Below the pieces are notes generated by a model. It did not search any database and was not told the DNA's origin. It worked only from the letters and a program-made list of their open reading frames with translations. The position numbers and the translations under genes were made by a program. A stretch of 64,000 nucleotides of DNA from Planctomycetota bacterium (lineage in GTDB: Bacteria; Planctomycetota; PUPC01; JACPCR01), in the NCBI GenBank assembly GCA_016179685.1, contig JACPCR010000061.1, forward strand, positions 28,336-92,335, written 5' to 3'. This document shows, one piece after another, positions 33,799 through 62,787 of this stretch (positions within the stretch are counted from its first letter, which is position 1; each line of letters begins with the position of its first letter).

Positions 33799-33845
33799 GG
33801 ACACTCGCCCCATCCCATTTCCGGGACCTCTAAGAGGCAGCAGCC

Positions 33846-34199: not shown

Positions 34200-34327
34200 C
34201 CCGTATCCCTGTTCAGAAGCGCGGGTGCACTTCTGAACAGGGATACGAGGGAAGATGCGGCGCGGGTCCGCCCGGGGCACCCGGACTTGCAGCCTCTGAA
34301 TTTCCATCCCGTCGAAGGAGTTTACCC

Positions 34328-35350: not shown

Positions 35351-35360
35351 GCGCGCGGTC

Positions 35361-42425: not shown

Positions 42426-42547
42426 CGCGGTTTCGTGGCGATATCCGGAATTTCAATCGCGTGGCTCATCATGAAAGCACAGGGGGGCGGGGAGCAGACC
42501 TCCGCCTTCATCAATCAGGACTCGCCGCCAGCAACCGTCTCGTGTCT

Positions 42548-46320: not shown

Positions 46321-47103
46321 ATGAAGACCAACCTGGCTCGGAAAAGGCTTCGTGACGGGCAAGCGACGATCGGCACGTGGGCCGTCTATGATTCGCCGGA
46401 CCTTGTGGAGCAGATGGCGCACCAGGGCCTCGACTGGGTGGCCCTCGACTGGCAGCACGGCCAGTTTACCGAATCGACGCTGAATCAGGCGCTCGGCCGT
46501 TTCCTCGCCGTCTCCTCGTGCCCCATCGTCCGGGTTAAAGCGATCGATCCGGGCAACATCAACCGGGTCCTGGACATGGGGGCCATGGGAATCATCGTTC
46601 CCATGATCGAGAACGCGGAACAGGCCAGGGAGGTCGTCCGGGCCGCCCATTACCCGCCGAGGGGCGTGCGGTCCGGCGGGGGCGTGCGCCTGGGTCTGAT
46701 CGGGGGGGGCGGTTTCCCCGAATATCTCGGCCGCGCCCAAGAGGAAATCCTGGTCGTTTTGATGGTGGAGACCGAACCGGCGATCGATAATGTCGTCTCC
46801 ATCATGGAGGTGCCGGGCGTCGATGCGGTGCTGATTGGGCCCGGAGACCTGATGATCGATGTCAAGGCCCGGGGGCATGACGAGGCGCGCCACGAACATC
46901 TCGTCCTCCAGGTGGCCGAGGCCGCCCGCAAGACGGGCACGGCCGCCGGATACGTCTGCACGACCCGTGAGATCGTGGAGAAACGGATGGCGCAAGGCTT
47001 CCGATTCCTGAGCTACCGGTCCGATCATGCCATTCTCATGGACGGCTTCACCGACCTTCGCACCCAGTTCAAGGCCTGGACGCGGGAGGGTCAAGCGAGA
47101 TGA
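46321..47103 (+). CDS. HpcH/HpaI-family 2-keto-3-deoxy-acid aldolase
   Basis: GTW...DSPDLVEQMAHQGLDWVALDWQHG ... MGIIVPMIENAEQA ... ETEPAIDNVVSIMEVPGVDAVLIGPGDL matches the HpcH/HpaI class II aldolase pattern. GGAGAA RBS before the ATG at 46321. Confidence 0.8.
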   Translation: MKTNLARKRLRDGQATIGTWAVYDSPDLVEQMAHQGLDWVALDWQHGQFTESTLNQALGRFLAVSSCPIVRVKAIDPGNINRVLDMGAMGIIVPMIENAEQAREVVRAAHYPPRGVRSGGGVRLGLIGGGGFPEYLGRAQEEILVVLMVETEPAIDNVVSIMEVPGVDAVLIGPGDLMIDVKARGHDEARHEHLVLQVAEAARKTGTAAGYVCTTREIVEKRMAQGFRFLSYRSDHAILMDGFTDLRTQFKAWTREGQAR

Positions 47104-47852
47104 GAAGCATCCGAGAGGCTCTCTGGCTTTGGGGGACGAAAGTCAACGGCCTGGAAAGCATGGGATTCCCGCCCTCGCGGATGAGCGTCGCACGAGGCTT
47201 GCAGGCCCTGCGCCTGGACCAGGCCATGATGTGCGGATTCCTGCCGCCTGCGGAGGAGGAATACGCCCCGGTGAGCCATTGCCGCAAGCTGCTCTGGGAA
47301 ATGAGCTTCGAGCCGAATTTCGCTTTCGAGCGGCCCATGTCCCCGATCGTCGAGCTGCATCGGCGACATCCGAACGTGACCGGCGTATTACTGGACGACT
47401 TCAGCTCCATCGAGATCAAGAAAGGTGCCCGGCCAGAGGTTCTCGCCCGCATGCGCGAGGCTCTGCCCCCGTCACTCCAGCTCTGGATCGTTGTTTATTC
47501 CATGAACCTGGGCATCTCGAATCTCCCGGACTACCTGCGGCACGTCGATGGCATCAGCTTCTGGGTCTGGCACGCGAAGGACCTTCCTCGGATAGCGGAA
47601 TGGGTGGCGCGCTGCCGTGACCTGGCCGGCCCCAAGCCCATGATTGCCGGTCTGTATTTCTATGATTTCGGGGATGGGAAGCCGCTGACGGCCGATGCCA
47701 TGGCCCAACAAGTGGATTCGGGAGTCGAGCTTGTCCGATCGGGTCATTGCGAAGGTCTGTGCCTCTTAGGCTCCTCCATCATGGATATCGGGCTGGAGGC
47801 GGTGGACTGGACCCTCGGGTGGGTGGAGCGGAACGGCGACGCGGCGGTCTAG
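47100..47852 (+). CDS. hypothetical protein
   Basis: 250-aa ORF with normal composition, translationally coupled to the aldolase (ATGA overlap). No recognisable motif. Confidence 0.45.
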   Translation: MRSIREALWLWGTKVNGLESMGFPPSRMSVARGLQALRLDQAMMCGFLPPAEEEYAPVSHCRKLLWEMSFEPNFAFERPMSPIVELHRRHPNVTGVLLDDFSSIEIKKGARPEVLARMREALPPSLQLWIVVYSMNLGISNLPDYLRHVDGISFWVWHAKDLPRIAEWVARCRDLAGPKPMIAGLYFYDFGDGKPLTADAMAQQVDSGVELVRSGHCEGLCLLGSSIMDIGLEAVDWTLGWVERNGDAAV

Positions 47853-48011
47853 TGTGCCGATTTCGAAGCGCGGGAATATTTCAGAACTCGAGTACTGGAG
47901 GGGCATTCTCGGGTAGGACGAATCGGCGCGGTCCGAAAGTCGCGCCCGGCCTGTGTTGCGAGAGCCCGAGGGATGGATAGAACGATGAGGAGTCATGAGG
48001 GGATACATTGA

Positions 48012-48374
48012 ATGGGAAGGACTCCTGTTACCGTGATAGTTTGTAATCCGGCCCAGCTTGACCGAACGTGGGAAGGGCTTTTTCTCGTGGATACTGACGC
48101 CGTGGATTGCTGGGTAGCCGGCGAATATTTGCGGGGTATCGGTATCGAGCCCCGCGGAAAACGTTTCTATGAATGGGCTGATGGCTCGGAGGTCAAGTTC
48201 GATATCGCGACGGGGGAGACCAAATTTATGGGCGATATGGTGGGAACGACCGTCATTTTCGTCTCCGATGACGCCGAACCCATTCTGGGTGTCACGGCAT
48301 TGGAGTCCGCAGGTATTGAAGTGAATCCGCGCAGCCAGCGAATGAAGCGCCTGCCGGCGCCGCGTCTAAAATAG
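48012..48374 (+). CDS. small retropepsin-like (clan AA) protein, paralog of 33846-34199 with D-T-D in place of D-S-G
   Basis: Alignable to the first copy (LFLVDTDAVD versus FLVDSGAMYS; GVTALESAGIEVNP versus GVVTLENLGLVLNP). 120 aa. Confidence 0.55.
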   Translation: MGRTPVTVIVCNPAQLDRTWEGLFLVDTDAVDCWVAGEYLRGIGIEPRGKRFYEWADGSEVKFDIATGETKFMGDMVGTTVIFVSDDAEPILGVTALESAGIEVNPRSQRMKRLPAPRLK

Positions 48375-48505
48375 TCAACGCACGCATTTTTGACGAATCG
48401 CCCATTCGCTTCGAAGGACCGTTAAGAAACGGCATCCTGTCGAGGGGGCCTGATGCCCCTTGCGGACGTGCCTCCCACAAGGGTGTCGTCATCGGAGAAA
48501 CGCCT

Positions 48506-49834
48506 ATGCCTCTTCACTTCAAGCCCGTGGTCGAGGTCGAGCAGGACGTCTATCGTTATGAGCCGGCGAACAACGGCGCATCGCCGTTGTGGTGTCACGG
48601 ATCGACTTGCCTCGCGCGCATCGGGTCGGACGTCTTCGCCACCGGGCTCGAGACCCTTCCAGACCAGAAGCCGCTGCTCAACTGCCGCTGGATGCTGTTC
48701 CACCGGCGTGATGACGAAAAAGAGTTCCACCTTGTCTGCCGCGACCTTCGCGAGCGCACGCGTGAGCCGAGTCCCATCGCCTGTTCTCAGGACGGCCGCT
48801 TCTTTGTCTCAGTGAATCCCACGCTCACGGACCTGACGAAGTACAGCGGTCCCGCCAGGCCGCAGGTGCTCGAGCTGACGGTGCGGGACCCGTTTGCGCC
48901 CTGGAAGAGCCTGTCCCCGCGCTGGGAGGGTGAGCCGGCCTTCACCGAGCACTCCTACCGCACCTTCACGGCCGACGGAAGCCGAGGCGAGTTGCTGCTC
49001 CTGCAGAATACGGGCTATGACCGCGCCTGGTGGAGCTTCCGGGACTCGAACGGCGAGTGGTCCGCCTGCGGGCACGTCGACTGGCCCTGGGGCGGCGAAT
49101 ACGTTAAGCCGCAGCCGGTCCGGCTCTGCTACCCGAACGTGGTTCTTGCCGACCGGGCCGTTCATTTCTTCGGTGTGAGCGACATTGTCGAGCCGAATCC
49201 GGCATGGAAGGCTTACAAGAAGGAGATCACGGGCCGGGAATGGGATTTTGACTTCCGCCGACTTTTCTATTCCTGGACGCCGGATATCACGCGGCAGCCC
49301 CTTCATCCGTGGATCGAGGTCGCCAGCCGAGAGAAGACTTGCGGCTGGCTTCAGATGGGCGACCTCTGGCTCGCGCCCGACGGGGCGGTCCACCTGCTCT
49401 GGCACGATCGAAGCCTGGACGAACGCCTGCGGCAGAAGTTCTTCCCGGGCGAACGCCTCACGATTTCACTGGAGTACGCCGTTCTGCGGGACGGGCGGAA
49501 AGTGTTTCAGGGGACCCTGGCCGTTTCCGGCGATGGCGGCACGGGCGAGGTCCCCGGCGCCGGCCGCTTTCAGGTCGCCGAGGATGGCCGTCTTTTCGTC
49601 CTGTATGCAGTCACCTTGGCCGGAGGCGCCATCGAGAATCGGATTCTGGAGATTCGGCCTGGCGGCCACGCCACCGGTCCGATGCGGATTCCGCTGGCGA
49701 AGCCCTTCGTGCCGATGTTTTTCACGGCGACGACTCGAGGCGGCTCGCGCCCTTCGAACGTCATCGATGTGCTGGGCCACGGCGCGGGCGACCCACAAAC
49801 GATCCGGTACGCCCGCATCCGGATCACGGAGTAG
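48506..49834 (+). CDS. hypothetical protein (beta-rich, Trp-rich; possibly propeller or sialidase-like)
   Basis: 442-aa ORF with a GGAGAA RBS and normal composition. No firm motif. Confidence 0.5.
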   Translation: MPLHFKPVVEVEQDVYRYEPANNGASPLWCHGSTCLARIGSDVFATGLETLPDQKPLLNCRWMLFHRRDDEKEFHLVCRDLRERTREPSPIACSQDGRFFVSVNPTLTDLTKYSGPARPQVLELTVRDPFAPWKSLSPRWEGEPAFTEHSYRTFTADGSRGELLLLQNTGYDRAWWSFRDSNGEWSACGHVDWPWGGEYVKPQPVRLCYPNVVLADRAVHFFGVSDIVEPNPAWKAYKKEITGREWDFDFRRLFYSWTPDITRQPLHPWIEVASREKTCGWLQMGDLWLAPDGAVHLLWHDRSLDERLRQKFFPGERLTISLEYAVLRDGRKVFQGTLAVSGDGGTGEVPGAGRFQVAEDGRLFVLYAVTLAGGAIENRILEIRPGGHATGPMRIPLAKPFVPMFFTATTRGGSRPSNVIDVLGHGAGDPQTIRYARIRITE

Positions 49835-50124
49835 ACCCGGGGATTCGCTCAAAGGGGCCGTTCGGCCGTGCTTCGCGAAGCTCGAGGCGGCCGTTCCGGC
49901 GCAGTGGAGAGGTGTTCGACTGTGATGAGGAAGGCATGCAGGCTCAATGGCGGCGCCTTCACGTTCGCGCGTGCGGGCGTAGGGAGTTGCCGCCGTTTTC
50001 ATACCGGTGCGCTCACGACTATTTTCTGGCCTATGTGCGTGCGCGTGCTGGACACATGGATCAGAATTCAAGAATCGCGCCCGGGCGTACGGGAGTGAAT
50101 ACCCATTCCATTTTTGGAAAGCCT

Positions 50125-53100
50125 ATGGACGAGCCACGACATTCGTTTCGAATTGCCTGGATGGGTCTGTACCTCTGCTGCATTTTTTTTGTCGGCGAGT
50201 TTCATGCCACCGCGGCCCCATCTTGGGCCAAGGAATTCCCGCCCGACCCTCCCGTGCCGCTGTCGTTGCCCATCGATCTCGAGGCGGCCAAGAAGGAGTG
50301 GAAGATCGTCGGCGAGCCGAAGGTGATCGAGGACGAGATTCTCAAGCGCAAGGTTTTCATGGTGCCGCTCTACCAGGGCTTTTATCCGAGGTCCCTGGCC
50401 AGCTTTTCAGGCTCTTACGCTGCTGAAATGCTCGTGAGGCTGTCGGACCCGAAACAGGGCTATGGTGGAGCGTCGCTGCGAGTGGGCGTTCGGGACAAGA
50501 ACGGCGCGGCCTCACCGGCTTACTCGATCTCGATCGGAAGGTACTACGAACGTGGATACATCCTCACACCTGCCTTGGGTGAATCGACGCTGTGGACCCA
50601 GCCGCACCGGCTGCCCGGCGAGCGCAAGACCTCCTGGTCGGTCTGGGACCCTCTTTACGGCATGGAGCGATTCCCGCCGGACAAGATTTCGCCGCTCTGG
50701 GACGAGGACTTTCGCATCGGTGTAGAGAACGGCATGGCCAAGGTGCCGAAGGTGCATGAGCGCTGGCATCGAGTGCGGATCGAGGTGCGGGATGGCCGCG
50801 CCCGGTGCTACCATGGCGGCATGCTCGTCGCCGACGAGGAGAACCGCGTGCAGGCCGACGGCGCGGTCCAGCTCGATCTGTCCGGGGAGGCCCGCGTGGC
50901 CTCGCTCGTGTTGCAGCCCCTCGTGGACCGGCCCAGCGCCTACTATCCCGTGCCGCTGGATGACATTCTGAATGCTCGGGGCCCCGTCGATCCCGCGACT
51001 TTGCCGGCCGCGGGACGGGAGGCCTCCGTCGCCGGCGTCCCCTTCCTCTTCCCGCCTCGGAGCGACCAGGCCGACCACGTCGACGTGGGTCAGAGCTTTT
51101 TCCGCTACGGGCTCGGCCAGGGCTACGGGGACGCGGACCCGATGACCACGTGGCCGACGGTGACGGTGCTCGATCCGGCCATGATCCGGCTGAGGGTGCC
51201 GAACCAGGCCTACCAGCGCCTATGGATTCTGGCGGCATCGGATGGCGAGCCGAACAGCACGCCGGTGATGACCGTTCGTTTCTACAGGGGCTACAAGGGG
51301 TGGCCGCTGGACGCGGCGACCCGCGTCCCGGAGTTCACGGCGAAGTCCTCGCCGAAGGAGGCGCTGCAGATGCCCATCGAGACCGTGGATGGGGGCGACC
51401 GCATCCATCTGAAGCCGCGCCCGGTATTCGAGCCCGAGCGCCTGAAGGTGAGGATGACCGATGGCAGTGCGGGCAGCCTCTGGCTCGTCCCGATCGAACT
51501 GGATGCGGGTGCGCTGGCATCGGACTTTAGGGAGGAGCCGGCGCTCTGCATCGAGCTGACGAAAGAAGTGAAGGACTACCGCGCTTTCCCGGACCCCATG
51601 TTCTACGGCAGCTACCCGGCTGGCCTGCCCAGCGCCGTGCGCGTTTATGCCCTCACGCTGGAGAGGGCGCCGGTTTCCGTCATCTCCTCCGGCACCCGTC
51701 ATGGAAAGGTTTATCCCTCCCCCGAGCAGCCGGTCTGGGCGGTCGATCTCAAGAGCCAGTCGGCCTCCGATACCGTGGCGACGCTGCGGGTCGAGTGCGT
51801 CTCTCCGGGCGGCCGGCGGCAGACCTTCATCGAGGGCGTTCATGTCCCCGCGGGGCAGAAGGCCCGGCTCGAGTTCCTTCCCGAGCTGCCGGAGTTTGGC
51901 CTGTATGCCGTGCGAACGACCGTGACCACTGGGAAGGATGCTCAAGCGCGGAACGGGACGTTCCTGAGGTTACCACCGGACACGCGTGTGACGAACGAGC
52001 ACAACAGCCGCTGGGGCCTCTGGTGCTGGGGTGGGGGGCACGAGACGGAATCGGACCCGGACAACAACATGCAGATTCTGCGGGCGCTGGGCAGCCGCAT
52101 CGGCGGGCAGTTCGAATACGAGAAGCGGCAGAAGTGGGGCATCGGCCCCACGGCTTCCCTGTGCTCGAATCTTTACTTCGACCTTCCGGAATGGTCGAAG
52201 AAGGAGCCGTATGATCCCGCCGAATACGAGAAGTTCAAGGAGACCTTCTCCAAGGAAATCGAGGACCGGATCAAGAAGGACCCGGGCATCGAATACTTTT
52301 CCGTCTTCGCCGAGCACATGATCTCGCTGCCCATCACGCACAACATGCCGCCGGAAATGTTCGGCAAGCCATGGCACGAATACACGGAGGCCGAGAAGGT
52401 GTCCATCCGTGCGCATTTCATCAGCGCGAAGGCCGCCTTCGAGGCATGCCGCAAGGCCGCCCCGAAGGCCAAGTTCCTTTTCGGGCACTGCGGCCCCCTC
52501 TTCTCGCTCCCCTTCATGCGCATGGGCTACGACAAGCAGCTTTTCGACGGCTACGGCGTGGACTCGCCGCAGTTCGAGCGCATGCCCGAGCGGCCCCCGC
52601 GGTCCGTCGAAGCCAATATCATGTATTTTCTCAAGGAGGACATGAAACGGCTCGGCTACGACAAGGAGCTGGTGCACGTCGAGTCCTACTATCCTTCGAG
52701 CCATCCGTTGGCGCTCGGCTTCCGCCGTTCCGCGGACAGCGTGGTCCGGACGGCCGTCTTGTCTCTGGCGCTCGGCTCGGACCGTTTCTTTGCCTGCTGG
52801 ACGACGCACGACTGCGAAGGCTACTGGGGCAGCCAGCACTACGGCTGCATCGGCATGATCAGTCGAAAGCCGGAGTACAACCCGAAGCCGGCGGCCGCGG
52901 CCTTCGCCACCCTGACCCAGATGCTGGACACTGCCCTGTACGACGGCTGGCTTCCGACCGGCTCGCGCACCGCTTACTGCGTGCGCTTCAAGGACTCCGA
53001 TAAATGGATATACAGCCTTTGGACCCTGCGGGGGACACGGCCGATAACGCTCCACGCGCCGGCGAACTGCAAGCTGGTCCGGGTGGACGAGAATGGCAAC

Positions 53101-54336
53101 TCCACGCCGATGGCGCTCGTCGAGGGGCGGGCCACGGTCACGCTTTCCGAGACCGCTTTCTGGGTCGTAGCACGGGGCGCACCCATCGAAAAGGCGGAGG
53201 TCGGCGCGCCCGACTACAGCGCCGAGTCCCTCATCGCCCGTTCCAGCGGGGAGGCGATCGCCTCCCCGCGCGGGCCGGCCGCGCGATATCTCCTCGAGGA
53301 CTTCGAGGCCCGGGAATGGTCCACCAGCGCTGAACGCGATGTCCGTTACGATACGAATTGCTGGGACGTGGTCCGCACGCCGGGCCCGTTCCAGTTCGAA
53401 CGCGTCCACTCGCCTGAACGGCAGTCCCGGGTCGTCCGGGTCACCCTGACCGAGCGTCCCGGGGGCAAGCCGTTCGTGAGTTGGTACGGCAGCACTGCGC
53501 CGGCCCGTCCTCTCCCGATTCCCGGAAAGGCGCGGGCGTTGAGCGTGCGGGCCAAGGGCAATTCCGGCTGGGGCCGAATCGTTTACGTCGTCCAGGACGC
53601 CAAGGGCGAGGTCTTCCAGAGCGTGGGAACAAAAGACGACTGGAACTGCGACGACGTTCATTCCTGGTCCTATTTCAACTTCGACGGCTGGCGAACCATG
53701 GAATTCCCGTTGCCGGCCAATTCGCCCGGTGACGATTACCGTGAAATGGACAGTGTCTGGTGGAATCACTCGGAAGAGGGGATTGTCGATTTGCCCCTCC
53801 AGCTTGTCCGGATATTCATCGAAATGCAGACTCACCAGATTTACGTGGATGAGATGCTCCCCGTCGAGAATCTGACCATCGAGCTGGACGACCTCGAGGC
53901 GGTATACGACGATCCGGAGGACATGACGGAGAAGCCGGTCCTCGTCCAACGGTCCGCTGCCGGCACGTTGAAAGCCAGGGCCACGGGCGGCTCGCTGCCG
54001 AACCCGATCGCCGGGCTGCGAGAGGCCGGCGTAGGGGCCGCGACGGAGATTCTGAAGGCCTACCGGCCCGAGCGGGAGTATGACGGCACCCGCATTCATC
54101 TCTCGCTCCGGCCGGTCGAAGGCGTCAAGGAATACCAGGTCTGGGTCAGCGCCTACGAGGACGGGCGCGGCGCCGTGGCTCACCTGAAAACGAAGGAGAC
54201 CGAGCCCCTGGTGACAGGCTTGAAGCCGAATGTCCCGCTCTATTTCTTCGTCACCTACACCGATGCGCAGGACAAGCCGTCCAAGCCCTCGGCCGTCCGG
54301 CGGACGGTGCTCAAGGACGAGTTCCCGATGAAGTAG
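50125..54336 (+). CDS. giant secreted hypothetical protein (1403 aa) with central TIM-barrel-like region and C-terminal fn3-like domain
   Basis: Start chosen at ATG 50125 (MDEPRHSFRIAWMGLYLCCIFFVGEFHATAAPSWA, a signal/anchor). The upstream 270 codons of the track ORF are Arg/Gly-rich. The C-terminus EYQVWVSAYEDGRG...LKPNVPLYFFVTYTD is fn3-like. Confidence 0.65.
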   Translation: MDEPRHSFRIAWMGLYLCCIFFVGEFHATAAPSWAKEFPPDPPVPLSLPIDLEAAKKEWKIVGEPKVIEDEILKRKVFMVPLYQGFYPRSLASFSGSYAAEMLVRLSDPKQGYGGASLRVGVRDKNGAASPAYSISIGRYYERGYILTPALGESTLWTQPHRLPGERKTSWSVWDPLYGMERFPPDKISPLWDEDFRIGVENGMAKVPKVHERWHRVRIEVRDGRARCYHGGMLVADEENRVQADGAVQLDLSGEARVASLVLQPLVDRPSAYYPVPLDDILNARGPVDPATLPAAGREASVAGVPFLFPPRSDQADHVDVGQSFFRYGLGQGYGDADPMTTWPTVTVLDPAMIRLRVPNQAYQRLWILAASDGEPNSTPVMTVRFYRGYKGWPLDAATRVPEFTAKSSPKEALQMPIETVDGGDRIHLKPRPVFEPERLKVRMTDGSAGSLWLVPIELDAGALASDFREEPALCIELTKEVKDYRAFPDPMFYGSYPAGLPSAVRVYALTLERAPVSVISSGTRHGKVYPSPEQPVWAVDLKSQSASDTVATLRVECVSPGGRRQTFIEGVHVPAGQKARLEFLPELPEFGLYAVRTTVTTGKDAQARNGTFLRLPPDTRVTNEHNSRWGLWCWGGGHETESDPDNNMQILRALGSRIGGQFEYEKRQKWGIGPTASLCSNLYFDLPEWSKKEPYDPAEYEKFKETFSKEIEDRIKKDPGIEYFSVFAEHMISLPITHNMPPEMFGKPWHEYTEAEKVSIRAHFISAKAAFEACRKAAPKAKFLFGHCGPLFSLPFMRMGYDKQLFDGYGVDSPQFERMPERPPRSVEANIMYFLKEDMKRLGYDKELVHVESYYPSSHPLALGFRRSADSVVRTAVLSLALGSDRFFACWTTHDCEGYWGSQHYGCIGMISRKPEYNPKPAAAAFATLTQMLDTALYDGWLPTGSRTAYCVRFKDSDKWIYSLWTLRGTRPITLHAPANCKLVRVDENGNSTPMALVEGRATVTLSETAFWVVARGAPIEKAEVGAPDYSAESLIARSSGEAIASPRGPAARYLLEDFEAREWSTSAERDVRYDTNCWDVVRTPGPFQFERVHSPERQSRVVRVTLTERPGGKPFVSWYGSTAPARPLPIPGKARALSVRAKGNSGWGRIVYVVQDAKGEVFQSVGTKDDWNCDDVHSWSYFNFDGWRTMEFPLPANSPGDDYREMDSVWWNHSEEGIVDLPLQLVRIFIEMQTHQIYVDEMLPVENLTIELDDLEAVYDDPEDMTEKPVLVQRSAAGTLKARATGGSLPNPIAGLREAGVGAATEILKAYRPEREYDGTRIHLSLRPVEGVKEYQVWVSAYEDGRGAVAHLKTKETEPLVTGLKPNVPLYFFVTYTDAQDKPSKPSAVRRTVLKDEFPMK

Positions 54337-54345
54337 CACATCGTC

Positions 54346-54933
54346 ATGGGGAAGAAGCGTTCGGCCCGGTCGGTGATCCTGACGTTGGCAGGGGCGACAG
54401 TTGCAGGCCTTCTCATCCACTTCGCCATTGCACGGCTTGGCGGGACCGGCCGCATCTCCCTGGAGCGTTTGCTCTCTTCGCGCACCGAAGTGCTGATGGA
54501 AGAGGTCGGGCGCTTCGAGGGCTATCCCGTGGCGACTCGGCGGGAGGTCATCTCGTTGTTGAGGTCGGTCCTGCGCCGGGATGAAGAGAGCGAGCGTCGT
54601 TTTCGTGCGGCTCTGGCGCTGCACCAACTTCAGCCGCCGGATGTTGAGGAGGACTTTCTTGAAGCGCTAGCGGACTCGGAGGCCAGGGTCCGGGCGAGTG
54701 CGGCCACCTCGCTGGGCGCCTACGGATACGTGCCGGCGGTGCCGGGCCTGGTCGGCTTGCTCTGCGACCCGGACGTCACGGTCCGAAGGAGCGCCATCTA
54801 CGCTCTGGGCGAGATCGGCAGCCACGACTGCATCGAAGCCCTGAAATCGCTGCCCCGAGACGCCCTCGAGGACTCCCTCACCCGGCAGCGCGTCCAGGCC
54901 GCGCTCGAGTCGGCCGATCGGGCACGACCCTGA
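54346..54933 (+). CDS. HEAT-repeat (PBS-lyase type) protein with N-terminal membrane anchor
   Basis: Hydrophobic segment SVILTLAGATVAGLLIHFAIA. Repeats ARVRASAATSLGAYG and VTVRRSAIYALGEIG. Confidence 0.6.
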   Translation: MGKKRSARSVILTLAGATVAGLLIHFAIARLGGTGRISLERLLSSRTEVLMEEVGRFEGYPVATRREVISLLRSVLRRDEESERRFRAALALHQLQPPDVEEDFLEALADSEARVRASAATSLGAYGYVPAVPGLVGLLCDPDVTVRRSAIYALGEIGSHDCIEALKSLPRDALEDSLTRQRVQAALESADRARP

Positions 54934-54949
54934 CAGCGGTGTTCCTGTG

Positions 54950-56452
54950 ATGCGATCATCGTTTCCCTATCTCCTGGTGGCGACCCTGCTGGCCGCGGGT
55001 CTCTCCGCTGGAAATCTGACCAAGGAGCTCTGGTTCGACGAGGCCTACACGCTCGGGCACTTCATCGCTCGCGGCTTTTTCGGGGTCTTCACCGACTACC
55101 ATTCCACCAATAACCATATCCTTTTCACTTTTCTCCTCGTGGGGTGGGTAAAGCTCCACCTGCTGCTCGACTGGCCCGAATGGTGTCTGCGCTTGCTGCC
55201 CTGGTCCTTCGCCCTTGCCTCCGTCGCCTGCCTCCACGCCGCGGTGCACGCCTGGCGCGGTCCCCTGGCTGCCTTTTACGCCGCCGTCCTTCTGGGGACA
55301 TCCCACGTCTTTCTCAACTTCTCATGCCAGGTTCGAGGCTACTCGCTTTCGGCCCTCGAGACCTCGCTCGCCCTGTGGCTGATCCTTCGGCTTCTGGAGA
55401 GGCCAACACGGATTGGCCTGGCCGCTTACGCGCTCGTCGCTCTGCTGGCCGTAGGGACGATTCCGACGAACGTGTTGCCCCTGAGCGCCCTGGCGGCGTG
55501 GGGCATCATCGAGCTGGTACACCGCGGCGCGCTGAAGAGCGCGGCCGGCCTCCGAGCCGCCGCGGTCATCGCTCTGGCCCCGCCGTCGGGCCTGCTCTGG
55601 TATCTCTGGCATCCCCGCGTGCGTTCCCAGTTCCTCCAACTCGTGCCGTCCGAGCCGGCCAGCTTCACAGCGGCCACGCGGGTCTGGGCTGACCTGGGGT
55701 ACGCCCTCCTTACCGACCTTCTCTGGCTGACGCCGCTTTTCATCGGCGGCGTTCTACTTCTGGGTCTTAGGCCGGACCTCGACGACGAGCGGAGTCGGCC
55801 CAGGCCTGGGTATTTTCTGCTCGCGGCGCTGACGCCGCTCCTGCTGGTCTTTCGCTTCAACAGCCTCTCGTTGTCGCGGGTCTTCTTCCCCTTCTTCCCC
55901 TGGTGGTTCGCAGGCCTGGGAATAGCTCTCGATGAAGCCTGCCGCCGCCTCGCACGGCGGTGGCCCAGGCTCGGACAACCTTTGCGCCTGCTCATCCTGG
56001 GCGTAGCGGCCCTGGCCGCATGCCGGGAGGCGACGTTCGTCACGGGGTATCGGGAGCGCTTGGCCTCGGAGCGGCCTCAAGGCGTTTATGACCAGTATTA
56101 CCAGGTGGACTTTTCGCCCCATGGGGTGATCGACTTTTTGAGCCGGGCCGGCGACTCGGGCCCCGGGGTCGCCCTGACGGACGAGAGCGACCATTATGCG
56201 CTGAAGTTCCACGCCTTTCTGTATGAATTTGCGCCCTTGTACTCCGCCGGAGGCGTGGGGTCTCGCGAGGCTTTCGCCGATGCCCTCGCCTCCGGCCGCG
56301 ACGTCTACCTGGTCTCCAACGGCCTTCTCAATGCCTGGTCCATGCTGGCCAAGGTCACGGAGAAAGAATTCAAGCTGGATGACTTGGCTCTTGTGCGGGA
56401 CACTGGCTTTTTCAAAATCTACGTCCTGCCTCGGCAGGGACTTCATCCGTGA
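54950..56452 (+). CDS. polytopic membrane protein, GT-C-type glycosyltransferase-like (PMT_2/GT39-like), paralog 1
   Basis: ELWFDEAYT (a D-E motif in the first extracytoplasmic loop) and about 11 TM helices. ATG at 54950 is preferred over the GTG at 54947. Confidence 0.5.
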   Translation: MRSSFPYLLVATLLAAGLSAGNLTKELWFDEAYTLGHFIARGFFGVFTDYHSTNNHILFTFLLVGWVKLHLLLDWPEWCLRLLPWSFALASVACLHAAVHAWRGPLAAFYAAVLLGTSHVFLNFSCQVRGYSLSALETSLALWLILRLLERPTRIGLAAYALVALLAVGTIPTNVLPLSALAAWGIIELVHRGALKSAAGLRAAAVIALAPPSGLLWYLWHPRVRSQFLQLVPSEPASFTAATRVWADLGYALLTDLLWLTPLFIGGVLLLGLRPDLDDERSRPRPGYFLLAALTPLLLVFRFNSLSLSRVFFPFFPWWFAGLGIALDEACRRLARRWPRLGQPLRLLILGVAALAACREATFVTGYRERLASERPQGVYDQYYQVDFSPHGVIDFLSRAGDSGPGVALTDESDHYALKFHAFLYEFAPLYSAGGVGSREAFADALASGRDVYLVSNGLLNAWSMLAKVTEKEFKLDDLALVRDTGFFKIYVLPRQGLHP

Positions 56453-57618
56453 AATCCATTCCGGTTGCCCTTATTTTGGTACTCCTGCTCGGCGCGGCCC
56501 TATCCGCGCCCTACCTGTGCAAAGACTTCTGGTTCGACGAGCGCTGGACGATCACGGACTTCGCGCCCCTGGGCTTCTGGGGCGTCTTCACGGAATACCG
56601 CCAGCCCAACAATCACATGGTCTTCACGTCGGTGCTCGTCCTCTGGATGAAGGTCTGCACGCTGCTGGACCTGCCGGAGAAGTGTCTGCGCCTCCTCCCG
56701 TGGCTTTTTTCCCTGGGCGCGGTCGCCGCCCTCTTTCTGTCCGTACGCGCTTGGCGCGGACCCCGCGCAGCCGTATGGGCCGGGGTGCTGCTCGTCACCT
56801 CCCATTTCTTCCTGCTGCACTCCTGTCAGGTCCGAGGCTATGCCCTTTCCTGCCTCGAGTGGTCCCTGGGCTTTGGCCTGACCTTCAGGATACTCTCGCG
56901 GCCCTCCGGTCCACTCCTCACTGCCTACGCCTTGGTGGCCACCTTGGCGGTGGGCACGGTGCCCACGAATCTGCCCATCTTCTTCTGCCTCGGCCTCTGG
57001 ATGGCCGCGGAATTGAAACGACAAGGCGATTGGAGTAGGGCGTATGGCAAGCTGCGGGCCGCCGCATGCCTGTTCGTTCCCTTGCCCGGCCTAGCCTTTT
57101 ATCTCGTGCATCCTAGGGTCCGCCAGCAATTCTTCGGTCACTCGATGAATCCTTTCTTCTGGAAGGACGTGAGGGAGCTGTACGAGGAGCTGGGGCATCG
57201 GCTGCTGCCGGATTTCCTGTGGTTGCTCCCGCTGGTCGCCGCGGGCCTGTATGCCGCCTGGCGAGGCGGACCGCATGGAAACACCCAGGACGTCCGACTC
57301 GGCCCAAGCCTCCCCCTCTTCGCTCTGGCTTCGGTCATTCCGTTGGCGGGCGGGCTCTTTCTGGCCTACTATGCCCGCAATTTTGTGCCGATGCTGCCCT
57401 GGTGGTCCGCAGCCTGCGGCCTGGCGCTGGACGAAGCCTTCGTGTGGCTTGAGACGGGGTGGCCGCGAGCACGCCGATGGGCAGCGGCGCTCCTGGTGGT
57501 GGTCGTCCTGTCGGCCGCGGCACGCGAAGTCCTGCTGTTCCGCAAGCTGGGCGGCCGCTGGGTGCCCGCCGCGGCCGTCTCGAAGTCGGACACGTCCGAC
57601 ACGTCCGACTCCTGCTGA
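56449..57618 (+). CDS. polytopic membrane protein, GT-C-type glycosyltransferase-like, paralog 2
   Basis: DFWFDERWT motif and the same helix layout as paralog 1. GTG start overlaps the upstream stop (GTGA). C-terminal SKSDTSDTSDSC is encoded by a short tandem repeat. Confidence 0.5.
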   Translation: MKSIPVALILVLLLGAALSAPYLCKDFWFDERWTITDFAPLGFWGVFTEYRQPNNHMVFTSVLVLWMKVCTLLDLPEKCLRLLPWLFSLGAVAALFLSVRAWRGPRAAVWAGVLLVTSHFFLLHSCQVRGYALSCLEWSLGFGLTFRILSRPSGPLLTAYALVATLAVGTVPTNLPIFFCLGLWMAAELKRQGDWSRAYGKLRAAACLFVPLPGLAFYLVHPRVRQQFFGHSMNPFFWKDVRELYEELGHRLLPDFLWLLPLVAAGLYAAWRGGPHGNTQDVRLGPSLPLFALASVIPLAGGLFLAYYARNFVPMLPWWSAACGLALDEAFVWLETGWPRARRWAAALLVVVVLSAAAREVLLFRKLGGRWVPAAAVSKSDTSDTSDSC

Positions 57619-57629
57619 AGGGTGTGAAA

Positions 57630-59513
57630 ATGCTTCTGAGGCTATGGCAGGCTCTCCTCTTGTGCAGCCTATCACCCGCCTCGGGCGAGCCGGCGGTGAG
57701 GCGTGTGGTTCTTCTGCCGCTCATCCCGGCGAATCCGGCAGCCGAGAAGGTGGTGGAGGAGGTCGGGAAGCTCCTCGTGAACGAACTGGAGGTTCAACCC
57801 GAGCTGTCGTGTCGGGCATTGAGTCGTGCGGAATTACTGGCCCTCGAGCCGTGTCCCTTGAAGGCGTTCGTAGCATCGGCGAGCCACGCGGGCGGTGGGG
57901 CGGACGTGGTGCTCCTGGCCAGGGTTTCGGTCTTCGAGGCGTTGAGGGAGCTGGACATGACCCTTTTCGACGGCGGGGGAGAGGTGCTGGGCTGCGTTTG
58001 GGACCACGGCTACGCGGGGCCGAACGGGGGGCGTTTCGACCGGGTGGGCCGCGACGATCTGGCTCTGCCGAACGCGATGGAATACCTGGTAGGGAATATT
58101 CTTCAGGTCATGGATTTTCCGGCCCGGCCCAAGAGGTTGATCGCGGTGAGTCCGTTTGAGGACGCGGTGAGTGCGGGAGACTACCGGGAAGGTGTTGCCG
58201 TCCTGCTGGCGACGTGCCTATCGGACTCGGGTGAGGCGTGGGGCCTGGCCCGGCCGGGGGAGGTGACGGCACGCTGGGCGGGTCCTTTGGCCGAATCCAT
58301 GGAAGGGGCCTGCGGCGAGGCGACCCAGGCGGTGAAGGGGAAGGTCCACCTCGTGGGCGAGATTCCGACCATCCAGCTTTCCTTGGAAAGAAGCGGCCGC
58401 GAGGCGGAGACGGCCCAGCAGTCCTTTCAGGGGCCGCAAGCGCTGCGCGGGACGGTCCAGCAGCTCGCGCGGGCGCTGCGTTCCGGAGGCTCGGACCGGC
58501 TCATCTGGTCATTCCGGTCGGCGGCCCGCGCTTCCGGCTCGCCCGTCTTCAGCGAGGGAGCGGTCCATTTTACGGCGGAGGACGAACACCTCTATTCCAT
58601 CAGTCTGGCCAGTGGCGAGCTGCGCCATCAGGCCCTCGTGGAACACTCGGCACACGGCATGGGCACCGTCGGACTGGCCGGCCCCTTCCGGCTCGGCCAG
58701 GCGCTGGCCGTGGTGACCGAGAGAGGGAGCATCATCGGCTACTCGCCCAAGGACCTGAAGCCGCTTTGGCGAGCCTCCGTCGGATCGGCCCCGAGACCGG
58801 TCGGCCTGACGTCATCCGGCCTGTTTCTGGCGGCCGGAGACGAGTTGACCCTGGTCCGTGAGGATGGAAAGGTCGCATGGACCGCTGCGGTGTCGGGAAC
58901 GGTTTCCGGGGGGTGCGAGGCGGGCGGACGCTGGTTTTTCGGGAGCGGCGACCAGCGCTTCCACGGGGCGTCTGTCCTGGATGGCCAGGAAGCCTGGGCC
59001 ACCGATCTGGACGACCGACCGTGTGGCATACCTGCCGCGGACGCCGAGAGCATCTACTTCGGCACGGAGGATGCCCGATTTCACGCAGTCCGGCAGGCGA
59101 ATGGCGAGCGGCGGTGGTCGATCGATCTGGAGGACAGTGCGACCGGAGCTGCCCGGTTCATGGGCGGCCTGCTGCTCGTGCCCTGCTCGAGCGGATCGCT
59201 TTACGGAGTCGATCCCGCGGCAGGTCGGGTCTTCTGGAAGCAGAATCTCTGCGGGCGCGGCACGCCGCTGCTCGTGCCCGCTGGCGGCCGGATACTCCTT
59301 GTGCGGGCGGACGGCGTGCTCGAAGCCCGGTCGAATTTCGAGAAGACGCCGGACTGGACTTTCCAGATGCCGGCGCGGGCGCGGTTTCCGGCGCTCTTCA
59401 TTTCCAAGGCCGAGCTGGACGGGTCAGAGGATTTGGACGTCGAGGACCGCAGCTGGATCGTCGTTGGGGACGAGGCGTGCAACATGTTTGCTTTAGATGC
59501 GGGAGGTGAATGA
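57630..59513 (+). CDS. secreted PQQ-like beta-propeller repeat protein (BamB-like fold)
   Basis: Signal peptide MLLRLWQALLLCSLSPASG. Repeated G-x-hydrophobic-x-A-hydrophobic-D-x-x-x-G-x-x-x-W units (GSIIGYSPKDLKPLWRA, GKVAWTAAV, DARFHAVRQANGERRWS, GSLYGVDPAAGRVFWKQ). Confidence 0.65.
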   Translation: MLLRLWQALLLCSLSPASGEPAVRRVVLLPLIPANPAAEKVVEEVGKLLVNELEVQPELSCRALSRAELLALEPCPLKAFVASASHAGGGADVVLLARVSVFEALRELDMTLFDGGGEVLGCVWDHGYAGPNGGRFDRVGRDDLALPNAMEYLVGNILQVMDFPARPKRLIAVSPFEDAVSAGDYREGVAVLLATCLSDSGEAWGLARPGEVTARWAGPLAESMEGACGEATQAVKGKVHLVGEIPTIQLSLERSGREAETAQQSFQGPQALRGTVQQLARALRSGGSDRLIWSFRSAARASGSPVFSEGAVHFTAEDEHLYSISLASGELRHQALVEHSAHGMGTVGLAGPFRLGQALAVVTERGSIIGYSPKDLKPLWRASVGSAPRPVGLTSSGLFLAAGDELTLVREDGKVAWTAAVSGTVSGGCEAGGRWFFGSGDQRFHGASVLDGQEAWATDLDDRPCGIPAADAESIYFGTEDARFHAVRQANGERRWSIDLEDSATGAARFMGGLLLVPCSSGSLYGVDPAAGRVFWKQNLCGRGTPLLVPAGGRILLVRADGVLEARSNFEKTPDWTFQMPARARFPALFISKAELDGSEDLDVEDRSWIVVGDEACNMFALDAGGE

Positions 59514-59514
59514 C

Positions 59515-62500
59515 ATGCCGCGCAGGATGGATTCCCTTCGACTCGGGGCAGGCGCTTCAGTCGTGCTGCGGATTCCATGCGCAAGCGAAGAAGGGTCTCC
59601 CAGCGAATTCTTCTGGACCCGTCCCCGTGCCGCTTTGCTGATTCCCTGGGCTTGCCTGGCGATGGCGGTATTTCCGTTCCGCCAGTGCCCGGCTCAGGAC
59701 CTCGAGCCCGAGGAGGACACGGAGCTGGAAGCGGAAATGGAGGAGGAGACGGACTTTCAGTTTCTCGCCGACAGCGTGTATCTGGAAGCAGAGGAGTTCG
59801 AGGGGGTTTCGGCCGAAACGAAGCCCGGGGAGAAGGCCGGGTGGAAGGCCGAGGCGGACTCCTACGTGTGCCGCGAGGTGGCCGAGCCGTTGCCCGAGGG
59901 TGGGAAAATCCAGAGGCGGTTCGAGGTCCCCGCGGCCGGGGACTATGCGCTCTGGGTGCGGTATTTCTTGAAGCCGGAGCTGGCGGACCCCTTCGAGCTG
60001 GTCGTCCGGCAGGGCGACCAGGAACGGTTTCGAGGGAAGTTCTATGACCGGCCGGTGGAACGCGGCGTGACGGCCGCCGATCTGGAGAAGGGGCGGGGAC
60101 TATGGATAGACGACCCGGCGGTGCGGGAAGGGATATTCACCTCGGAGACTTTTGTGTGGGACCGGCGCGAGGTGAAGCTGGGGCCGGGTGAGGCATCCGT
60201 GGAACTGGAACACCACCCGCGTCCCTATCGGCAGCCGACGCGCTTCCGCGTGGACGGGTTGCTCCTGACGCGCTCGAAGTCATACCGGCCCGCCTTCCGG
60301 GACTTTCGGACCCTCTTCGTGCGCGTGAAGGTGCTGGAGATCGAGCCGGCGGATGCGGAGTTCACCTGCGCGTTCACGCTGCTGAGGCATGACGGGCACT
60401 ACACGTTCCGGGATGGCAGTCCGCGCTGGTGGTATGGCGGCGTGTGGGGCGTCACGGGGCCAAAAAAAGCGCCTTTGAAGGCCGGGGAGTACTCGGACTG
60501 GGTGAACATGGACGTGCACCTGAAGGAAGGCGCCCTGCCCTGTACCACCGCCGTGGAGTTGAAAGGGAAGAGCTTGGGCCGTTGCAGGGTCCAGCTCGAG
60601 GCCGCGTGGGGCATGCAGGACTCCCAGGTGGTGAAGCGGGTAGTCGAGGAGGGGATGCTGCCCCTGGCAGGTTTCGTTCTGCCCTGCCAGGACGTCAGGT
60701 CCAGAGACGAGGTGGTCCGCAGCGTCTGGCCGCAGCGATACCGTGATACCGTCCGGGGTATCTCCGAAGAGGCTTTGAAGCGCCTGGAGCTGGTGAGGTC
60801 GTTCGAGAGGTCCGCTCGGGCGCGGCCCGAGAAGGTCTGGGTGAGCATCGGTGCGGGCGGCTTTGGCGGCTATCACTCCTCGCCGGCCGTGTCGGAGGCG
60901 GAGGCGGAGGTGCTGGAGCGCATCGGGGCCAATGCGGGGGGGACCGGCGTGCCGGAGATCGATGGGCGGCACGGCATCGGCCCCGCTGGCTTCGGAGGAG
61001 CTGCGGACCCGCCGACGTATTATTCCGGAACGGTCTGCCCGTCGGGCCCCGCTTATGCCCGCGGCATCCGCGCGCATTACGAGCGCGAGGCCGCAGCCAT
61101 CCGGAAGAGCCGGCCCGGCGCGATCGAGTCCTACCGGCGCTTCAAGCTCGGCGACGAGATCGGCTACGCGACGACCGTCGCCCATGCGCGGCAGTGCTAT
61201 CACTGCATCCGGGCGTTCCATCGTTTCCTGGCCGAGAATGGATACCGGCCCGAGGATTTCGGCGAGAAGTCCTGGAATCCCTCCCTCCTGCCCCTGGAGA
61301 AGGACGCGGCGGAGGGCCGGATCGGACGCCTGCTCTACTTCAATACGATGCGGTTTCTAGCGACCCTGACGGGCCGGACCTACGCCCAGGCCACCCGGGC
61401 GGTCGAGGAGCACTTCTCACCCGACGTGAGGACGTATGCCAACTTCTCGCCGCACCCCATCACCCTCGGCAGCGGCATGGGCATGGACTGGTTCGAGCTT
61501 TCCCGGCAGCGCGGCGTCACCTTGGGCTGGGTCGAGGGCTGGATCACCATGGGAAGCTGGGGCGGACCTGGACTCCAGATTCTGTCCTACCTGACCGAGA
61601 TCATCCGGTCCGCTCACCGGAAGCAGCCGCCCGGCCCCCTGGGCTACTATCTGGTGGGCTCGACCGGCGGCATCCGGACCCAGTTCAACACGTTCCTGGC
61701 GCATGGGGGCAAGATGGTGGACGTCTACGGCTACGGCCCCCAGTATGCCGCGACGGAAACCTACTTCGCGGAGGACCCGGGCTCTTTGCGGGGCTGCGCC
61801 GACGGCATGACCTCGCTGGGGAAAGCGGACGCGCTCATCCACGCAGGATCGGACCGTCCGGCGGATACGGCGCTTCTCTACTCCCGGAGCGCGGAGCTGT
61901 GGCAGGAGGATACGGCGATCAATACGAACCGGAGGCTGATCTACCTGGCGCTGCTTCACCAGCATCTTCGAGTGGATATCCTGACGGAGGACGACCTGGT
62001 GGGCGGCGTCCTGGAGAAATACCGGGCGCTTTACCTCACTGGATTGAACGTGCGCCGTGACGGGCAGAAGGTGATTAGGGACTGGGTGGGCCGGGGCGGC
62101 GTGGTCTGGGCGGACGCGGGTTGTGCGATCCGGGACGAGTCGGACAGCCGATGCCGCGACCTGGACGAGGTTTTCGGCGCGAGCCACGTGCGGCTCGTCC
62201 AGGTGAAAACGAGCTACCACGAGTTCCAGTTTCCGAAGCTGAAAGACCTGGATGCGGCGACCTATGAGGCCTCGGAGCATTTTCCTGCCGGCCCGGCTCG
62301 GGTGGTGGGATACCGGGAGACCCTGAAGGCGGAGGGCGGGGAGGTCCTTGCCACGTTCCAGGATGGCAGCCCTGCGGCTCTGGTGCACGGTTTTGGGAAA
62401 GGCAAGGCCTTCCGTTTCGCCTATTTTCCCGCTTTCACGTACCGCCTGTACGCCACGCCGGAGGCGCTCTCGCTGCCGAACGGATACCGGGAGGAGGAGC

Positions 62501-62787
62501 GGCGCATCATCGCGCGTGCGGCGGTCACCGCGGGATGCCGGGGTCCCGTGGCCCTATCGGACCCCCTGGTGGAGCCGGGATTACTCGAATCCGCCGGGGG
62601 CCGGGCGCTGATCCTGGTCAACTTCCGTTTCAAGGAAATCCCGAAACTGGACGTGCGGGTGAGGTCCGTGCCCGGCGTCGGCCTCGTCGAATCGGTCTAT
62701 CAGGGTCCCTTGGACTTTCGGCAGGAGGGGGCGGACGTGTTATTCTCGATGCCGCTGGGAACTTCGGACGTGGTGATTTTAAGATGA
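59515..62787 (+). CDS. large hypothetical protein (about 1090 aa) with a C-terminal region resembling a GH42-type trimerisation / class-I-glutamine-amidotransferase-like domain
   Basis: A GGGAGG RBS precedes the ATG at 59515. An internal hydrophobic segment (AALLIPWACLAMAVFPF) suggests a signal or anchor. The ALLYSRSAELWQED...YRALYLTGLNVRRDGQKVIRDWVGRGGVVWADAG pattern resembles beta-galactosidase trimerisation domains. Confidence 0.55.
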   Translation: MPRRMDSLRLGAGASVVLRIPCASEEGSPSEFFWTRPRAALLIPWACLAMAVFPFRQCPAQDLEPEEDTELEAEMEEETDFQFLADSVYLEAEEFEGVSAETKPGEKAGWKAEADSYVCREVAEPLPEGGKIQRRFEVPAAGDYALWVRYFLKPELADPFELVVRQGDQERFRGKFYDRPVERGVTAADLEKGRGLWIDDPAVREGIFTSETFVWDRREVKLGPGEASVELEHHPRPYRQPTRFRVDGLLLTRSKSYRPAFRDFRTLFVRVKVLEIEPADAEFTCAFTLLRHDGHYTFRDGSPRWWYGGVWGVTGPKKAPLKAGEYSDWVNMDVHLKEGALPCTTAVELKGKSLGRCRVQLEAAWGMQDSQVVKRVVEEGMLPLAGFVLPCQDVRSRDEVVRSVWPQRYRDTVRGISEEALKRLELVRSFERSARARPEKVWVSIGAGGFGGYHSSPAVSEAEAEVLERIGANAGGTGVPEIDGRHGIGPAGFGGAADPPTYYSGTVCPSGPAYARGIRAHYEREAAAIRKSRPGAIESYRRFKLGDEIGYATTVAHARQCYHCIRAFHRFLAENGYRPEDFGEKSWNPSLLPLEKDAAEGRIGRLLYFNTMRFLATLTGRTYAQATRAVEEHFSPDVRTYANFSPHPITLGSGMGMDWFELSRQRGVTLGWVEGWITMGSWGGPGLQILSYLTEIIRSAHRKQPPGPLGYYLVGSTGGIRTQFNTFLAHGGKMVDVYGYGPQYAATETYFAEDPGSLRGCADGMTSLGKADALIHAGSDRPADTALLYSRSAELWQEDTAINTNRRLIYLALLHQHLRVDILTEDDLVGGVLEKYRALYLTGLNVRRDGQKVIRDWVGRGGVVWADAGCAIRDESDSRCRDLDEVFGASHVRLVQVKTSYHEFQFPKLKDLDAATYEASEHFPAGPARVVGYRETLKAEGGEVLATFQDGSPAALVHGFGKGKAFRFAYFPAFTYRLYATPEALSLPNGYREEERRIIARAAVTAGCRGPVALSDPLVEPGLLESAGGRALILVNFRFKEIPKLDVRVRSVPGVGLVESVYQGPLDFRQEGADVLFSMPLGTSDVVILR

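Follow-up and report, generated by a model that had tools for sequence, protein, structure and literature searches.

Introduction

Glycosyltransferases of the GT-C fold that use polyprenyl-phosphate donors (ArnT of family GT83, the PMTs of GT39, STT3 and PglB of GT66, ALG12 of GT22, AftB, and DPY19), retaining glycoside hydrolases of clan GH-A such as the GH39 protein of Bacteroides cellulosilyticus WH2 (Protein Data Bank (PDB) entry 5JVK), the GH42 beta-galactosidases of Geobacillus stearothermophilus (4OIF and 5DFA), and the PQQ_2-type beta-propellers of BamB (YfgL) and similar proteins are the described systems closest to the products of six consecutive genes that we have analyzed in a planctomycete. 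At the level of gene neighborhoods, the nearest comparison is with the polysaccharide-utilisation clusters of the Planctomycetes-Verrucomicrobia-Chlamydiae (PVC) phyla. The six open reading frames (ORFs), here called A to F, occupy positions 50125-62787 of a 64,000-nucleotide stretch (the window) of contig JACPCR010000061.1 in assembly GCA_016179685.1, and all of them are present on the plus strand (Table 1). The products of A, C, D, and F are identical over their full length (100% identity) to GenBank entries HYU36_08160, _08170, _08175, and _08185, which derive from a metagenome-assembled genome (MAG) labeled 'Planctomycetes bacterium'.

An earlier note on this DNA had described the array as a novel surface glycan/protein-processing system built from mostly unassignable envelope proteins. 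We find that all components belong to known superfamilies (clan GH-A, GH42-like, GT-C, HEAT, and PQQ_2 propeller), within which they are uncharacterised, and that the arrangement recurs at none of the loci compared. On balance, it seems somewhat more probable than its alternatives together that the array is a lineage-specific operon in which an envelope glycosylation module lies between two polysaccharide-degrading enzymes, and not a conserved system.

Gene order, spacing, and probable co-transcription

The order of the six same-strand genes is as the earlier note gave it, and its account of their tight spacing was accurate to within 1-2 bp at each junction: the gaps listed there (10, 17, overlap, 12, and overlap) compare with values of 9 (A/B), 16 (B/C), -4 (C/D), 11 (D/E), and 1 bp (E/F) that we read from the sequence. 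The C/D overlap, a GTGA, is as claimed, whereas the E/F overlap arises only when the upstream ATG at position 59497 is used for F. Between the stop of E and the annotated ATG of F at 59515, which has the Shine-Dalgarno sequence GGAGGTGA 5 nt upstream, there is a gap of 1 bp.

All five junctions in the array are thus 16 bp or shorter, compared with 5 of the 24 same-strand junctions elsewhere in the window that are 20 bp or shorter; taking junctions to be independent, the chance of meeting five such short ones in succession is about 0.21^5, or ~4e-4. Co-transcription is therefore likely, and the six genes probably form one operon, presumably transcribed from the 290-bp gap (49835-50124) that separates A from the genes at 46267-49834. 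A terminator scan inside the array gave no convincing candidate, and the only promoter-like site returned there by a promoter scan is weak (9/12 matches, 54930-54959, spanning the B/C junction). GC content is approximately 65% throughout the window, with no compositional break at the array, and neither an Rfam scan nor a tRNA scan of the window gave a match. Unrelated genes also sit about 10 bp apart in this genome, as seen for a radical SAM/DUF2344 gene that ends 9 bp before that of lipoyl synthase and for a BioB-like gene that ends 8 bp before a receiver-domain gene, and caution is therefore in order when stepping from an operon to a pathway.

Table 1. Positions in the window of genes A-F and of the four genes immediately upstream.
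Gene	Position	Strand	Product and features
A	50125-54336	+	1403-aa secreted multidomain protein, GH39-like barrel
B	54346-54933	+	195-aa HEAT protein, N-terminal membrane anchor
C	54950-56452	+	500-aa GT-C-fold membrane glycosyltransferase (predicted), small C-terminal alpha/beta domain ~400-500
D	56449-57618	+	389-aa paralog of C
E	57630-59513	+	627 aa; signal peptide; BamB-like (PQQ_2-type) beta-propeller ~290-600
F	59515-62787	+	1090-aa GH42-like protein
HpcH/HpaI aldolase	46267-47103	+	HpcH_HpaI, E 1.6e-32
250-aa protein	47100-47852	+	ATGA overlap with aldolase gene; no significant Pfam or PDB match
120-aa ORF	48012-48374	+	LVDTDA motif by eye; no Pfam match better than E 0.1; no significant PDB match
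442-aa protein	48506-49834	+	no significant Pfam or PDB match

Protein A represents a family of GH39-like secreted proteins

When queried as a single sequence, A has no match in Pfam, NCBIfam, or the PDB sequences. An AlphaFold2 model of residues 246-1403, computed on 31 sequences, has a predicted local distance difference test score (pLDDT) of 85, rising above 90 in the barrel, and the top Foldseek match of this model is the GH39 structure 5jvk_A (E 3.8e-19, template modelling (TM) score 0.70 on the target), with GH2 enzymes following. The same structure is found, weakly, when the family profile is searched against PDB sequences (E 0.019). In order, the domains of A are a signal peptide, a jelly roll weakly similar to LamG and 3-keto-disaccharide hydrolases, beta-sandwiches, a (beta/alpha)8 barrel at ~630-895, further beta-sandwiches, and an FN3-like C-terminus; PF06439, the LamG-like 3-keto-disaccharide hydrolase model, matches the N-terminal domain weakly in 6 of 31 family members. 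It is the barrel together with the following beta-sandwich that superposes on 5jvk_A.

Two glutamates of A stand where retaining clan GH-A enzymes carry theirs, one of them following strand 4 and the other ending strand 7. E730 lies four residues past modelled strand 724-726 (strand 4) and is kept in 71/71 relatives at identities down to 28%, while E853, within modelled strand 848-854 at the end of strand 7, is kept in 67/71, the remaining four having a glutamate one alignment column later. The residues H639, D813, E822, H905, and Y906 are conserved as well. This placement implies a retaining double-displacement hydrolase in which E730 would serve as acid/base and E853 as nucleophile, and, judged from the model, the most suitable reading of A is a secreted glycosidase with several domains that belongs to an unclassified GH-A family. 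Its differences from GH39 are nevertheless substantial. The Pfam GH39 model matches neither A nor any of the 31 family members, identity in the structural alignment is 14%, and A is about three times longer, having in addition the LamG-like domain, the beta-sandwiches, an NCDDxHSWS domain, and the FN3-like tail. Unlike GH39, the A family is also mostly confined to PVC-type phyla.

We identified 36 cluster-level homologs of A and 76 loci encoding relatives in GTDB species-representative genomes, distributed over Planctomycetota, Verrucomicrobiota, Lentisphaerota, Kiritimatiellia, Omnitrophota, and others. The family is annotated as hypothetical everywhere and is often present in several copies per genome, with seven in one PVC MAG and a paralog (P0003) in the same MAG as the window, which is behavior like that of carbohydrate-active enzymes (CAZymes). 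A relationship of A to F, or to the other giant protein encoded at 19230-23633, was considered and rejected on comparison. At its C-terminus (window 54313-54336), behind the FN3-like domain, the family has a conserved sequence with the consensus ...LKDEFPMK, in which F1400 is nearly invariant and after which there is no transmembrane segment; this element might be a tag for sorting or docking, or else a strand completing a domain.

Protein F is a rare GH42-like protein

The layout of F comprises an N-terminal hydrophobic segment, an acidic linker, a weakly CBM35-like domain, one half of a divergent TIM barrel, a GH42 trimerisation-type domain at ~783-966, and a C-terminal beta domain. The trimerisation-type domain had been recognized in the earlier note, and in our searches F has a weak match to the Pfam model GH42M (E 0.0019, 18.2 bits) that falls under the cut-off of 25.8; searching PDB sequences with F as a single sequence gave nothing useful. 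F is nearly an orphan, having one database homolog (24% identity) and two relatives that we met by chance beside A-like genes; the three share 24-26% identity with it. Two of these three relatives exceed the GH42M cut-off (38.7 and 39.8 bits; ~1e-9), and their matches to Glyco_hydro_42 are weak and below cut-off. A profile of the four sequences matches the GH42 beta-galactosidase 4oif with E 6e-9 over the latter half of the barrel together with the trimerisation domain, and we regard the GH42-like fold assignment, which was made from such profile comparisons, as fair. Residues D547-E548 and E674 are invariant in all four sequences; the D-E pair stands in a TDEP-like context and could be the acid/base. 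In contrast to the GH42 enzymes, F has approximately 430 extra N-terminal residues. The glycosidase-like segments that had been noticed in the two giant proteins are therefore GH39-like in A and GH42-like in F, and to call the products of the array mostly unassignable was too pessimistic.

Proteins C and D define a GT-C family with its own signature

C and D, described previously as a pair of GT-C-like paralogs, share 47% identity over the 346 residues of the membrane domain, and D is without the soluble C-terminal domain of ~110 residues that is present in C. The AlphaFold2 model of C (pLDDT 84, predicted TM score 0.86) has 30 Foldseek matches in the PDB at E<=1e-3, every one of which is a GT-C protein; ALG12, STT3, AftB, ArnT, PglB, DPY19, and Pmt4 are among them. 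On the strength of its identity to C, D would share the same fold. C thus resembles the GT-C enzymes with polyprenyl-phosphate donors in its predicted fold and in having a D-E pair after the first transmembrane helix (TM1), and the ArnT-type enzymes also in size and in the small C-terminal soluble domain. It differs from all of them in sequence, identity to the solved structures being 9-16%, and D differs further in having no C-terminal domain.

A signature specific to the C family, WxDExxT...PNNH...RGY...PxN...R, comprises in C the residues W28-x-D30-E31-x-x-T34, P-N54-N55-H56, R81, R129-G130-Y131, P172-x-N174, Y218, and R310. Across 148 family sequences, conservation of each of these elements is 95% or higher, and D, which has a row in the alignment (A1) in which the signature is invariant, retains every signature residue. 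The D30-E31 pair, which lies just after TM1 in the first loop, is found in 147 of the 148. A conserved acidic loop motif of this kind was what the earlier note had proposed looking for among the homologs, and its presence means that a reading of C and D as pure transporters is not supported. To judge from these conserved residues, C and D look like active transferases.

The size of the family became apparent only with an exhaustive profile search. A word-indexed search returned just 10 relatives of C, whereas the profile search, among 1.84 billion representatives, gave 11,971 with E<=1e-3 and 412 with E<=1e-30. Curated models do not capture this group. C has no Pfam or NCBIfam match and nothing useful among PDB sequences, and no family member exceeds the cut-off of any curated GT-C model in Pfam or NCBIfam, the nearest approaches being D against STT3 (E 0.016, 15.1 bits, cut-off 24.5), distant members against PMT_2 (22-24 bits, cut-off 26.1), and the C/D relative P0049 against Agl23 (20 bits, cut-off 126). 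Ten family representatives that were looked up in their clusters, one of them from Fuerstiella sp., are annotated only as 'hypothetical protein', and literature searches covering GT-C and HEAT proteins in Planctomycetes, as well as GH39 in PVC phyla, gave no work specific to the families described here. D has a short-form ortholog, P0051 (384 aa, 46% identity). The 3' end of the D gene (57585-57618) has a tandem repeat, ACACGTCCG, which encodes an SDTSDTSDSC tail located exactly where C runs on into its soluble C-terminal domain; this repeat may be the scar of a truncation.

Proteins B and E

The HEAT protein and the PQQ-type propeller named in the earlier note are both well supported, B by matches to HEAT_2 (E 7e-23) and HEAT (E 6e-14), and E by a match to PQQ_2 (E 2e-27) and by PDB sequence matches to BamB structures (E 1e-9 to 1e-7). 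The translation of B reads KKRSAR in front of its hydrophobic N-terminal segment. In E, it is the C-terminal half that resembles BamB and other PQQ_2-type propellers; E differs from BamB in having an extra N-terminal region of ~290 residues, with the N-terminal 310 residues giving no match in Pfam, and in the absence of Bam genes nearby. Its scores fall far below the cut-offs of the models for the BamB equivalog TIGR03300 (63 bits, cut-off 285), PRK11138 (37 versus 423), and the pyrroloquinoline quinone (PQQ)-dehydrogenase TIGR03075 (14.8 bits, cut-off 480), and by these sequence models E belongs neither with the BamB equivalogs nor with the quinoprotein dehydrogenases. B and E are most simply read as scaffolds. 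Elsewhere in the window, a 1021-aa protein encoded on the minus strand at 39363-42428 combines HEAT repeats (~300-460) with a C-terminal WD40 propeller, and is a single-chain counterpart of the B and E pairing.

The neighborhood is not conserved

All ten window proteins encoded between 46267 and 62787 were compared by tblastn, blastp, and phmmer with every locus that we fetched. These were the 76 genome loci of A relatives with four further ones (L001, L002, L084, and L171), taken with up to 10 kb on each side, and 80 metagenome loci of C relatives together with approximately 10 contigs. Relatives of B, C, D, or E are absent from the surroundings of A relatives (~80 loci), and relatives of A, E, or F are absent from those of C relatives (~90 loci), so that at none of these loci is the GT-C pair seen together with the giant proteins, an association that the earlier note had suggested looking for. 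In L001, the A relative has a 508-aa gene next to it, which we considered as a possible GT-C gene and rejected, since its product is not GT-C.

The neighbors of C relatives differ every time, and include genes for NadA, URO-D, a PilT-like ATPase, GH38, GH4, and a GDSL lipase. Around A relatives, on the other hand, certain genes recur, namely GFO/IDH/MocA oxidoreductases, NAD-dependent sugar epimerases/dehydratases, DUF1559-type pseudopilins, beta-CASP nucleases, and sulfatases, and in L084 an alpha-L-fucosidase gene adjoins the A relative. With their sulfatases, oxidoreductases, epimerases, fucosidase, GntR/LacI regulators, and F-like proteins, these surroundings are like the polysaccharide-utilisation clusters of PVC phyla, and the window resembles such clusters in having sugar-acid catabolic genes upstream. 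It departs from them in that no sulfatase or regulator adjoins the array, and in the insertion of the HEAT gene, two GT-C genes, and the propeller gene between A and F, which no other locus shows.

Only fragments of the array recur, these being an A-like with an F-like gene at two loci and a B-like with a D-like gene on one contig. In L055 (a Verrucomicrobiaceae MAG) and L083 (a Planctomycetaceae MAG) the A-like and F-like genes are no more than ~2 kb apart and B-E are absent. The former locus (L055:4429-13732) is a same-strand run in which a 618-aa protein without a Pfam match is encoded between the F-like and A-like genes, with weakly heparinase II/III-like and DHDPS-family aldolase genes upstream; in the latter (L083:4950-13510) the pair lies beside a GntR/LacI-type regulator and pseudopilins. 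Because F-like proteins are rare and yet were found twice beside A-like genes, a catabolic partnership of A and F is indicated. The sole conserved adjacency met for B-E genes is on a contig of 1.5 kb (L089), where a B-like HEAT gene (1-228; 38% identity over 74 aa) lies 54 bp upstream of a gene for a short-form GT-C protein (283-1437). This 384-aa protein resembles D most (46% identity), and the contig is not long enough to reveal more. Duplication of the GT-C gene also recurs independently of the window, with tandem pairs of the same family lying ~1.5-2 kb apart in three metagenome loci (L106, L149, and L165).

Interpretation of the array

We therefore lean toward a picture of two kinds of extracytoplasmic carbohydrate-active proteins placed side by side, each with its own evolutionary history. 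As secreted proteins like clan GH-A glycosidases, A and F would most likely cleave a complex polysaccharide that is external or associated with the envelope, and their products would feed the same-strand genes upstream, which encode an HpcH aldolase, two UxuA dehydratases, an enolase-superfamily dehydratase, and a lactonase-like protein. B, C, D, and E would constitute an envelope module. Within it, the predicted place of the conserved D-E pair of C and D is the first periplasmic loop, and the two proteins would move a sugar onto an acceptor in the periplasm, which might be a lipid, a glycan, or a protein; by analogy of fold, the sugar donor would be polyprenyl-phosphate-linked. C and D may act as a pair, and both B, a HEAT protein anchored in the membrane, and E, with its BamB-like propeller, would be non-catalytic scaffolds.

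Several observations weigh against this picture of two modules. That five junctions in succession measure no more than 16 bp argues for joint expression, which would be odd for modules that are functionally unrelated, and the link to the upstream sugar-acid genes is one of proximity only. A has no N-E-P acid/base motif of the kind that is typical of clan GH-A and present in GH39, but reads A-E-H in the context F-A-E-H, with P/A/G-E-x in its relatives. In the F profile, no conserved residue stands opposite the GH42 nucleophile (mutated in 5DFA), which aligns to an insertion, so that F may not be a hydrolase. Finally, close kin of C are poorly sampled, the closest relatives lying on contigs of only 1.5-4 kb and those nearest to C and D, P0049 and P0051, on contigs of less than 2 kb.

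The continuity of the tight spacing, significantly tighter than the background of the window, might instead mean that all six genes encode one dedicated machine for processing an envelope glycan or glycoprotein, in which, on the periplasmic side, the GT-C pair builds or attaches the glycan, A and F trim or remodel it, and the HEAT protein and propeller hold the complex together, by analogy with the pairing of oligosaccharyltransferase and glucosidases in the endoplasmic reticulum. It is consistent with such a machine that each of the six products is predicted to lie in the membrane or outside the cytoplasm, that the GT-C proteins look catalytically competent from their conserved residues, and that a B-like gene adjoins a D-like one in L089. 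The absence of B-E from the loci of A relatives, and of A, E, and F from those of C relatives, speaks against it, however, as do the A-like and F-like pairs that occur elsewhere in catabolic settings without GT-C genes and the ~10-bp gaps between unrelated genes of this genome, and we consider it unlikely. The proposal of a novel surface glycan/protein-processing system thus holds for the anatomy of the locus and is without comparative support as a conserved system; it is conceivable in this one organism. A version limited to this lineage, in which full-length C and truncated D would form a GT-C heterodimer, as do Pmt1-Pmt2 and EmbA-EmbB, with the HEAT protein and propeller as scaffold and the giants trimming the glycan, has only a slim chance of being correct, by our estimate. 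Were it true, the six genes would amount to a bacterial build-and-trim line of glycan maturation, which has not been described before.

Two further explanations dispense with a shared pathway of this type. The giant secreted proteins might be substrates and not partners, with C and D glycosylating A, F, or E in the manner of PMTs during export, in an operon of transferase and clients. PMTs carry a D-E pair in loop 1, which the D-E directly after TM1 in C and D resembles; Pmt4 and DPY19 are among the fold matches of C, distant family members match PMT_2 weakly, and A and F offer long linker and beta-sandwich regions. ArnT, ALG12, and AftB, whose acceptors are lipids or glycans, nevertheless score at least as well as the PMTs, no PMT, PMT_2, or MIR domain is found above cut-off, and a GT-C neighbor is almost never seen beside A relatives, and we give this explanation the least credence of all. 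It is also rather improbable, in our view, that the genes have no functional relation and perhaps no single transcript, as would be the case if a compact genome had merely brought a duplicated housekeeping GT-C gene, its HEAT partner, and a propeller lipoprotein to lie between CAZyme genes. About one-fifth of the other same-strand junctions in the window are 20 bp or shorter, some of them between unrelated cofactor genes, and the neighbors of C relatives are wholly different at every locus, as expected for such a by-product, but the run of five very short junctions would then be an unlikely accident (~4e-4), and the array contains no convincing terminator and one weak promoter-like site.

If, as we prefer, the array is a lineage-specific operon, its main value lies less in the array as a system than in three protein families that have no curated model. 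The A family (~1,400 aa, 76 loci, mostly PVC-type phyla) is a candidate new glycoside hydrolase family, which may act on the complex, perhaps sulfated, polysaccharides that are broken down by these phyla. The C/D family, which has a sharp WxDExxT/PNNH/RGY signature and is large, its cluster representatives at E<=1e-30 numbering no fewer than 412, could join the family databases, and F stands for a rare GH42-like family that travels with the A family. The lack of conservation of the array, in turn, spares effort on a presumed new pathway.

Upstream genes and other features of the window

The four genes at 46267-49834 do not recur beside A or C relatives, except for an aldolase homolog in L031. 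The 120-aa ORF among them had been called retropepsin-like, a label that finds no support in Pfam and to which only the LVDTDA motif visible by eye can be related. Farther upstream, on the strand of the array, positions 32710-36533 hold two tandem paralogs of UxuA-type mannonate dehydratase, which a gap of 10 bp separates from the next genes, one for an enolase-superfamily (MR_MLE) dehydratase and one that is SMP-30/lactonase-like, and a melibiase-like protein is also encoded among the upstream genes. This context fits sugar-acid catabolism. A URO-D-like gene is found 12 kb upstream of the array (37537-38511) and another (L085:2-733) ends 10 bp upstream of a C relative; the presence of such a gene in both places is probably a coincidence.

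The window encodes other large proteins. At 19230-23636 there is a secreted giant of 1468 aa with a weak DUF6250 match, the gene for which overlaps by 4 bp the stop of a Mur-ligase-like gene (17536-19233), and on the minus strand at 5745-9059 an MFS-like membrane domain is fused to a spermidine-synthase-like domain and TPR repeats in a protein of 1104 aa. The interval 15653-17535 is empty in a gene call based on GC content at third codon positions (GC3), and contains a long plus-strand ORF encoding PA14, PKD, and TPR domains; judging by this domain content, it probably specifies a secreted protein of carbohydrate-binding type.

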